Shown here: positions 1 through 59,982 of the stretch, piece after piece | How positions within the stretch are numbered: the stretch's first letter is position 1 | How the letters are laid out: each line of letters opens with the position of its first letter | DNA from: Escherichia coli | GTDB lineage: Bacteria > Pseudomonadota > Gammaproteobacteria > Enterobacterales > Enterobacteriaceae | Direction: 5' to 3' (one strand) | Length of the DNA stretch: 64,000 nt | Assembly: GCF_003334315.1 (NCBI RefSeq) | Contig: NZ_QOWR01000010.1 | The notes under the pieces: model-generated | Databases searched by the model: none | What the model saw: the letters and a program-made list of their open reading frames with translations, nothing else | Told to the model about the DNA's origin: nothing | Position numbers and translations under genes: made by a program

Positions 1-320
<320 letters not shown>

Positions 321-8095: not shown

Positions 8096-8200
<105 letters not shown>

Positions 8201-55636: not shown

Positions 55637-56629
<993 letters not shown>

Positions 56630-56751
56630 TTAATGAACTTAATGATACAGCATTACAAAAACAATCGAAGTTTATAAAGATGATTTCTGATTGACCAGCC
56701 CCCTACCCTACAATGGTGATTAATTTTATTACTCGCGATGGAGATGATGAT

Positions 56752-56955
56752 ATGAATATATCATATGTGAATAGCAACAAAACGACATCTTTACCTGTTG
56801 AGCTAGATGCACTAAATAATAAAGATATCTCTTATGCCAAAGATTTCTTTTTATACATAGAAACACAGTTAAAAATTGCAAAAGATTTTTTAGACCTGGA
56901 GAAGAAGTATCAAGTTCTATTGCAAGTAAAGTTTTTCACGCATTTATTGATTTAG
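56752..56955 (+). CDS. yjbS: Small hypothetical protein (67 aa) in an AT-rich islet
   Basis: ATG at 56752 (MNISYVNSNKTTSLPVELDALNNKDISYAKDFFLYIETQLKIAKDFLDLEKKYQVLLQVKFFTHLLI). Low GC. Coding status is uncertain. Confidence 0.45.
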   Translation: MNISYVNSNKTTSLPVELDALNNKDISYAKDFFLYIETQLKIAKDFLDLEKKYQVLLQVKFFTHLLI

Positions 56956-57456
56956 TTAACAAAATCAGGGGTAAGAAAGACTTTATGTATACTTGCACGC
57001 TTTGCTGTTTTGCCGAGGAGGTTAAAGGTGATTATTCTCATTACAGGACCTTTTTATTTGATATTGGTAATCAATATAAGGTTAAACTTACACAAAGCGG
57101 AAAAAAGAGTTCTCTTTAACATTAGAATTTAACGATACTATAATTGAATCTCAGAAAGTCACAGGCAATAAGGCAAAGCATATTCTTGAGGATATAGAAA
57201 TATTCTATCGTAACAAACCCGATACTTATTATTAAATTTAATAATGGTTAGATGTGCAGAAATTATTACTCCACCCAAAAAAACAGGATAAGGAATTCCA
57301 GATAATTGGGATAAACTTAACAATAAAAGAACTAACAACGTTTATTATCTCTCACGTAGAACGATGGCATCAAAAAAATCATCTATAAAGAAAGAGTGAA
57401 AGCGACGACAGTTTAATTTCACTGCAGGCTGGGTAGCTCCAGCCTGCTTTCCTGCA

Positions 57457-58650
57457 TTACATCACCGCAGCAAACGCCTTTGCCACACGTTGTACATTTG
57501 CCGTATTTAACCCGGCGACACACATGCGACCGCTGGCGATGAGATAGACACCAAATTCTTCACGTAGTCGGTCAACCTGAGCGGCACTTAAACCGGTATA
57601 ACTGAACATGCCGCGCTGATTAAGCAGATAATCGAAATTGCGTTCTGGCATCTCTGTGCTTAATACCTTCACCAATTCCTGACGCATTGCCAGAATGCGA
57701 GTACGCATCTCTTCTACTTCCGCCAGCCAGCTGGCTTTCAATGCCTCGTCATTCAGCACTGCAGCCACCACCTGCGCACCAAAATTCGGCGGGCTGGAGT
57801 AGTTGCGGCGAACTGTTGCTTTCAATTGCCCCAGTACGCGGCCAGCGGCTTCGGCATCTTCACACATAACAGAAAGTCCGCCGACGCGCTCGCCGTAAAG
57901 GGAGAAAATTTTCGAGAACGAATTGCTCACCAGAGCGGGTAATCCAGCGCTGGCAATGGCGCGAATAGCGTAGGCATCCTCTTCCATACCGGCACCAAAT
58001 CCTTGATAGGCAATATCGAGGAATGGAATAAGCTCGCGGGCTTTGAGAATTTCAATCACCGCATCCCACTGATCATTAGTGAGATCGGCACCCGTTGGGT
58101 TGTGGCAACATGGATGCAGCAACACAATACTGCGGGCAGGTAATGTTTTCAGCGTCGCCAACAGGTCATTAAAGCGCACGCCGTTAGTCGCTTCGTCATA
58201 CCAGGGGTAAGTACTCACTTCGAATCCAGCCCCGGCGAATATTGCTACGTGGTTTTCCCAGGTAGGATCGCTGACCCAGACGCCTGATTCCGGGAAGTAG
58301 CGTTTCAGGAAATCCGCGCCCACTTTCAATGCCCCGGAGCCGCCAAGGGTTTGAATGGTTGCTACGCGCTGTTGTTTCAGTACCGGATGGTCCGCACCAA
58401 ACAGCAGCGGCGCAATGGCATGGCGATAGCTGTTAAGCCCTTCCATCGGTAAATAAAGCGAAGCGCCATGAGGCTGCGCATTCAGGCGCGCTTCCGCCTC
58501 CGCCACGGCTTGCAGTTGTGGAATAATTCCGTCTTCGTTGTAGTACAGACCGATACTTAAATTCACTTTGTCGCTGCGAGGGTCTTCTTTAAAACGCTCC
58601 ATAAGCGTAAGAATCGGGTCGCCAGCGTAGGCGTCAACTTTTTGAAACAC
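57457..58650 (-). CDS. tyrB: Aromatic-amino-acid aminotransferase
   Basis: 397 aa beginning [24 protein letters not shown] with a GTG start at 58648-58650. PLP-lysine motif [14 protein letters not shown]. Confidence 0.95.
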
Positions 58651-58837
58651 GCGATGGTTCTCCAGGTTTACGGGCAGGTGGTTAAAACACAATAAACCGG
58701 AAGAAGGCGAAGATCGAGTGGATGTTCAGGAGCGAACGGCAATTAGCAACAGAGTGAGACTCATGACAAACGTACATCCGCCAGAGGCACGACCTTTATA
58801 AGAGCATGAAAGAACATCAACTTATTGAATTTTTAGG

Positions 58838-58898
58838 ATTTTATTGGCCGGATAAGGCATTCACGCCGCATCCGGCACAGACAATCAAATATTACAGA
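58838..58898. repeat. REP element between alr and tyrB
   Basis: ggccggataaggcattcacgccgcatccggcac. Confidence 0.8.
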
Positions 58899-58902
58899 AC
58901 GA

Positions 58903-59982
58903 TTAATCCACGTATTTCATCGCGACCCTTGAAGTCAGGCGCGTAATAAGTTCGTAAGCGCTTACTTTCGTCATTTCAGCGATACGTTCTACGGGCAAAC
59001 CTTCGCCCCATAAAATGACCGGATCCCCGGCTTTGTCCTGCGCCTGTGGACCTAAGTCTACGCAGATCATATCCATCGCCACGCGCCCGACAATCGGTAC
59101 TTCGCGACCGTTCACCAGCACTGGCGTACCGGACGGCGCGGCGCGCGGATAACCATCGCCATAGCCCATCGCGACTACGCCAAGACGGGTATCACGTTCG
59201 CTTACCCAGGTTCCACCATAACCAACAGGTTCTCCGGCTTTATGCTCACGCACGGCAATCAGGCTGGAGGTTAGTGACATCACTGGCTGACAGCCAAAAT
59301 CGGCACCGGTGGAGCGATCTTCCAGCGGCGAGACGCCATAAAGAATGATGCCCGGGCGCACCCAGTCAAAATGCGACTGTGGCCACAGCAGAATGCCACC
59401 CGACGCGGCAATGGAACGTTGACCAGGTTTGCCTTCGCAAAAGGTATTAAAGATAGCGAGTTGTTTCTCGGTTGCGCCACATTTTGGTTCATCCGCGCGC
59501 GCAAAATGGCTGACGATATTCACCGGCTGACGAACGTTTTTGCACTGGGTCAGGCGATGATAAAACGCCTCAGCCTGTTCCGGCCTTACGCCCAGACGGT
59601 GCATACCGGTATCGAGTTTCATCCAGACGGTAACCGGCTCGTCCAGGCTAGCCTCTTCCAGCGCAGCCAGCTGTTCTTCGTTATGCACGGCGGTATGAAA
59701 ATGTTGCGCAGAAATCGTCGGCAGATCTCTGGCATCAAAAAAGCCTTCGAGTAACAGTACAGGTTTGGTGATTCCCCCCGCACGCAGTCGCAGAGCTTCT
59801 TCGAGACGGGCTACGCCAAAGGCGTCAGCATCGGGGAGCGTTCGCGCGGTCTCAAGAAGACCGTGACCATAAGCGTTCGCTTTCACCACCGCAACCATTT
59901 TACTGGCAGGGGCCAGTTCACGAAGACGTTGCAGGTTGTGTCGCAGAGCGCGGCGGTTAATCACAACAGTTGCCGCTTGCAT
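58903..59982 (-). CDS. alr: Alanine racemase (biosynthetic)
   Basis: 359 aa with PLP-binding [11 protein letters not shown] near the N-terminus. Confidence 0.95.

Follow-up and report, generated by a model that had tools for sequence, protein, structure and literature searches.

Initiation at GUG is well represented among bacterial genes. GUG is the start codon of about 14% of the known genes of E. coli, and in reporter tests GUG starts support roughly 10 to 100% of the expression obtained with AUG (10.1101/063800). Genes of this kind combine a near-cognate start codon with a Shine-Dalgarno (SD) sequence at normal spacing and use of the initiator tRNA, and tyrB resembles them in all of these respects; we find nothing distinctive in tyrB relative to this group, and its GTG start is no rarity given the proportion of E. 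coli genes that use GUG. The gene described here is the same as E. coli K-12 tyrB (b4054), with which it shares the dnaB-alr-tyrB context, an annotated GTG start, and a product of 397 aa. The aspC gene encodes the paralogous aspartate aminotransferase of E. coli, whose N terminus coincides with that of TyrB, both proteins beginning with MF; its start codon is ATG. The tyrB gene has a GTG start instead; it is subject to repression by TyrR (PMC4374768).

A further class for comparison is that of the alternative N-terminal proteoforms that arise from in-frame upstream starts, as mapped by retapamulin Ribo-seq. In tyrB, likewise, a near-cognate codon (TTG) lies upstream in frame, and the frame is open from there to the main start, but the gene differs in that this TTG lacks an SD sequence and lies upstream of the transcription start as quoted in the literature, and neither the frame nor the peptide that it would specify is conserved. 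An entry for tyrB was not found in the supplements of TRAINSPOTTER N-terminomics, tetracycline Ribo-seq, Giess et al., or the transcription-start mapping of Kim et al., and literature text searches on the tyrB start codon (GTG or GUG) yielded no specific statement. A dual-frame initiation motif, AUGUG/GUGUG (PMC9841429), was considered for tyrB and rejected, as the tyrB start reads GUGUU.

Identity of tyrB and its initiation codon

The window, by which we mean the whole stretch of 64,000 nucleotides that was analyzed, is E. coli chromosome, and the gene order dnaB-alr-tyrB is evident both from its list of open reading frames (ORFs) and in a locus of 100% identity. The tyrB coding sequence (CDS), encoding aromatic amino acid aminotransferase, occupies 57457..58650 on the minus strand and comprises 397 codons plus a stop (ORF list and RefSeq); in the RefSeq/PGAP annotation of the 100% identical locus, the tyrB CDS has its first base at the equivalent of window position 58650, with a length of 1194 nt and a product of 397 aa. 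A segment of 511 nt around the start has a match in all 5426 complete E. coli genomes, with features named tyrB and alr. The TyrB protein of the window is identical to PDB 3TAT at 396/397 positions over residues 1-397 (E = 1e-266), and this full-length identity, together with the position beside alr and dnaB, identifies it as TyrB, a class I aminotransferase. At least 1000 contigs encode exactly this 397-aa protein, with the GTG codon read as Met, under the name aromatic amino acid transaminase. Residue 74 (58429-58431, minus strand) is Ser in the window, whereas K-12 TyrB has Cys at this position in both 3TAT and 3FSL (LNSYRH versus LNCYRH); the Ser74 allele is common, as judged by the exact protein matches on those same contigs.

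When the sequence is read directly, positions 58648..58650 are GTG on the minus strand (CAC on the plus strand), within the minus-strand context ccggtttaTTGtgttttaaccacctgcccgtaaacctGGAGaaccatcgcGTGtttcaaaaagttgacgcctacgctggcgacccgattctt, and the codons that follow in frame are TTT CAA AAA GTT GAC GCC TAC GCT GGC GAC CCG ATT CTT. The initial annotation had proposed a GTG start for tyrB at this position, leaving the strand unstated, and that proposal is borne out, with the minus-strand GTG leading in frame into the expected TyrB N terminus. Deposited structures agree with this placement. The 3TAT and 3FSL chains have 397 aa, begin with MFQKVD in the depositor sequences, and in alignment cover residues 15-411 of the longer ORF that encloses the gene, although both the PDB sequences and the RefSeq annotation are depositor or pipeline statements and not independent measurements. 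In addition, residue 2 of the AspC chains (396 aa) aligns with residue 16 of the 411-aa ORF, which places AspC Met1 on the tyrB GTG codon.

The longer ORF (57457..58692, minus strand) has its nominal start at 58690..58692, a codon that we judge to be unused. This codon had been described initially as an in-frame ATG; the minus strand in fact reads TTG there (CAA on the plus strand), in agreement with the start codon given in the ORF list. Translation of the window gives no in-frame ATG between GTG and the upstream in-frame TGA that closes the frame (58726..58728, minus strand). The 14-residue extension quoted with that description is translated correctly if TTG is read as initiator Met, but the ATG on which it was said to begin does not exist, and with TTG rather than ATG as its start codon the rival start is weaker still.

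Ribosome binding and transcription of the tyrB leader

The leader contains an SD core, GGAG, at 58660..58663 on the minus strand, separated from GTG by a 9-nt spacer and thus within the 5 to 10 nt upstream of a start codon at which an SD sequence is sought. The duplex of this element with the 3' end of 16S rRNA (anti-SD) has a computed energy of -6.4 kcal/mol, and only 7.6% of random 20-mers drawn from the window pair at least as strongly, whereas the 20 nt preceding TTG give -2.4 kcal/mol, equivalent to background (mean, -2.36). Spacing of the ribosome binding site had been suggested as a check on the GTG assignment, and it comes out in favor of GTG and not of TTG. GGAG with a spacer of 7 to 9 nt is present in 83/83 sequences of the comparison set described below. 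[quoted passage not shown]

The 5' untranslated region (UTR) of tyrB is given as 32 nt in PMC6550522, which cites Yang & Pittard 1987. Converted to window coordinates (58650 + 32), this quoted length places the transcription start at approximately 58682 on the minus strand, such that GTG is within the mRNA and TTG is 10 nt upstream of the transcription start so derived. A -10-like hexamer, TATTGT, is located at 58689..58694 (minus strand) and forms part of a highly conserved block, CTTCCGGTTTATTGTG; the TTG at 58692-58690 falls within the hexamer, whose end is 6 nt upstream of the transcription start calculated from the quoted 5' UTR. With at least 90% column conservation over 80 distinct sequences, the TATTGT block is the most conserved noncoding block of the region. 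We infer that TATTGT is the -10 element, and this assignment is based on position and conservation because a consensus promoter and terminator scan of 58500-59000 found nothing. No intrinsic terminator is predicted between tyrB and alr, which lies upstream on the same strand, so read-through transcripts could contain the TTG, and the argument from the transcription start is therefore not absolute when taken alone. We also note an out-of-frame mini-ORF, GTG TTT TAA (58682-58690, minus strand), that shares bases with both the TTG and the -10-like region; it lacks an SD sequence and is situated at or upstream of the transcription start as quoted.

These features are accommodated by a simple scheme. 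Transcription would begin about 32 nt upstream of GTG, near 58682 if the quoted UTR length applies, from a promoter whose -10-like TATTGT contains the TTG, and GGAG at 58663-58660 would then position the 30S subunit 9 nt before GTG. The initiator fMet-tRNA would read GUG as a near-cognate start, such that the protein begins with Met and has the N terminus MFQKVD; Met is thus the probable first residue of TyrB. The 42 nt from TTG to GTG would be noncoding, serving as promoter, 5' UTR, and operator DNA.

Conservation of the start region

One scan of GTDB species genomes yielded 80 loci, representing about 21 named enterobacterial genera, with protein identities of 85 to 98%, and the comparison set as a whole consisted of 82 related loci and the window (83 sequences, 80 distinct sequences). 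GTG is invariant, being present in the window and in 82/82 related loci, or 80/80 distinct sequences. Downstream of GTG, the entropy by codon position is 0.16/0.05/0.86, with variation mostly at third positions, whereas in the 42 nt from TTG to GTG the corresponding values are 0.76/1.10/0.93 and there is no codon periodicity. The onset of codon-like periodicity coincides exactly with GTG, which therefore marks, in frame, the 5' edge of the conserved coding region.

The upstream segment also varies in length. GTG lies at a distance of 43 to 52 nt from the conserved GTTTATTG block, depending on the sequence, and the frame is not kept (50/28/5 sequences by distance modulo 3), reflecting frame-breaking insertions and deletions between species in the stretch from TTG to GTG, and 16/83 sequences have an in-frame stop 18 to 39 nt upstream of GTG with no alternative start. 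Within E. coli, 5148/5427 records are identical over the 62 nt centered on the start, and the same 62-mer mutated to ATG had 0 perfect matches among the 5425 E. coli records found. Two of the three polymorphisms in the would-be extension within E. coli would be nonsynonymous.

Several individual records warrant comment. At a Citrobacter amalonaticus locus (JARDVN010000001.1; positions 1198-1225 of the locus), GTG is kept, and the A-run just after it carries one additional base (GTG TTT CAA AAA A GT TGA); the insertion would frameshift tyrB at codon 5, and could be either a homopolymer assembly error or a real pseudogene. At the tyrB locus of a contig labelled 'Chryseobacterium sp. 18061' (CACSKA010000007.1), identity to E. 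coli TyrB is 86% and the leader is of the typical enterobacterial kind; the assembly is probably mislabelled or contaminated. Among the roughly 5427 matches that the tyrB start region has in the E. coli genome collection, four fall on records classed as plasmids.

Alternative translation starts

We consider it almost certain that tyrB is translated from GTG at 58650-58648 into a 397-residue aromatic amino acid aminotransferase. This start is correct, it is already known from the reference gene model, and it is ordinary. The competing proposal that a 411-residue TyrB, in whole or in part, is started at TTG 58692-58690 with a 14-residue N-terminal extension is highly improbable. The window does have an open frame from TTG to GTG, and bacteria can initiate at TTG, but this TTG is preceded by no SD sequence, the pairing energy there being that of background, and the open frame is not kept between species; 16 sequences have stops in it, and codon periodicity is lacking. 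An in-frame TTG or GTG does occur 39 to 42 nt upstream in many relatives; the TTG recurs because the promoter is conserved, the codon being part of the -10-like block and preceding the transcription start as quoted in the literature. Read-through from alr, with no predicted terminator in the way, could place the codon on a transcript. A collection of about 15 billion predicted proteins contains no 411-aa form, and the extension is present in no homologous structure. An extended proteoform would be expected to have its own ribosome-binding signal within the transcript and an extension conserved as coding sequence, and neither was found. The view expressed in the initial annotation, that the 14 additional codons are not part of the enzyme, is thus supported by annotation, structures, the SD sequence, conservation, the 5' UTR, and the protein collection.

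A start in the opposite direction, at the first in-frame ATG (Met17; ...PILTLMERF...), with GTG as an upstream or internal valine codon, is barely conceivable. It has in its favor that ATG is the commonest start codon and that the codon 17 ATG is invariant (80/80). However, codons 2-16 are strongly coding, with nearly invariant first and second positions, and residues 2-16 align with the N termini of AspC and other solved aminotransferases, and it is on account of this coding character and alignment that we rank the Met17 start so low. The conserved GGAG moreover is at start-codon distance from GTG and about 57 nt upstream of Met17, and the 397-aa form is the one used by RefSeq and the PDB depositors.

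TyrR-box-like sites at the translation start

The TyrR sites of tyrB have been described as downstream of the core promoter and occluding the start site (PMC4374768). In the window, two candidate TyrR-box-like 18-mers are present on the minus strand. One, CGTAAACCTGGAGAACCA (58655..58672), is in the 5' UTR and overlaps the SD sequence; it matches 7/12 consensus positions, and TGTAAA is found at this site in many relatives. The other, TGTTTCAAAAAGTTGACG (58632..58649), has as its first two bases the TG of the GTG start codon. The starts of the two 18-mers are 23 bp apart, and each has 5 mismatches to TGTAAA-N6-TTTACA while keeping G2 and C17. With a threshold of 3 or fewer mismatches to the TyrR consensus, no site was found in the tyrB leader, and the box assignments are tentative because the leader offers only these 5-mismatch matches; that these exact 18-mers are TyrR boxes is a plausible interpretation.

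Across 80 sequences, synonymous variation is unusually low in codons 2-7; codon 7 is GCC in all of them (80/80), whereas GCT at codon 9 has a third-position entropy of 1.45. The pair of TyrR-box-like sites and the low synonymous change fit an operator overlapping the translation start and are consistent with the published TyrR repression of tyrB. A stronger proposal is that selection maintains GTG itself as one component of a compact control module, as opposed to being a neutral choice of start codon. We regard this as unlikely. Although GTG is invariant in the 80 distinct sequences while nearby synonymous sites are close to saturation, the first base of GTG is outside the core of the TyrR-like box. 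Start codons are generally conserved, and strict conservation is usual for them. Were the proposal true, the overlap of TyrR operator, ribosome-binding site, and weak start codon would keep TyrB synthesis low and tightly repressible.

Flanks of tyrB

The region upstream of tyrB is variable. In 871 of 5426 complete E. coli genomes (about 16%), similarity begins only at about 58728, 78 nt before GTG, reflecting an island between alr and tyrB. Because the island junction immediately precedes the conserved block TGAACATCC.CTCGATCTT, these genomes retain the core tyrB promoter. At one such locus (L002, positions 1-1500), the upstream neighbors are pnuC and a gene for an AAA-family ATPase, not alr, and a 2-oxoglutarate dehydrogenase E1-like gene is downstream; the same GTG start is annotated for tyrB at this locus despite the different upstream neighbor.

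Between alr and the tyrB promoter there is a REP-type palindromic element, GCCGGATGCGGCGTGAATGCCTTATCCGGC (58847-58876, minus strand). Five further copies are present in the window (45-74, 145-174, 245-274, 8102-8131, and 29710-29739), where none would be expected by chance; the three at the window start are spaced by 100 bp. Downstream of tyrB, the interval 56600-57450 is AT-rich and contains short ORFs only; the RefSeq annotation places a hypothetical protein and a frameshifted pseudogene in this stretch. A 'promoter island' has been reported at tyrB/yjbS in K-12 (PMC3661553), and it probably corresponds to this interval of the window.

Implications for tyrB expression

A correct gene model for tyrB helps in the design of expression constructs, start-codon edits, and translational fusions, and the apparent longer ORF can be viewed as an artifact of a TTG that falls inside the promoter. 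Replacement of GTG by ATG is a plausible lever by which TyrB could be raised in strains engineered for aromatic amino acids.
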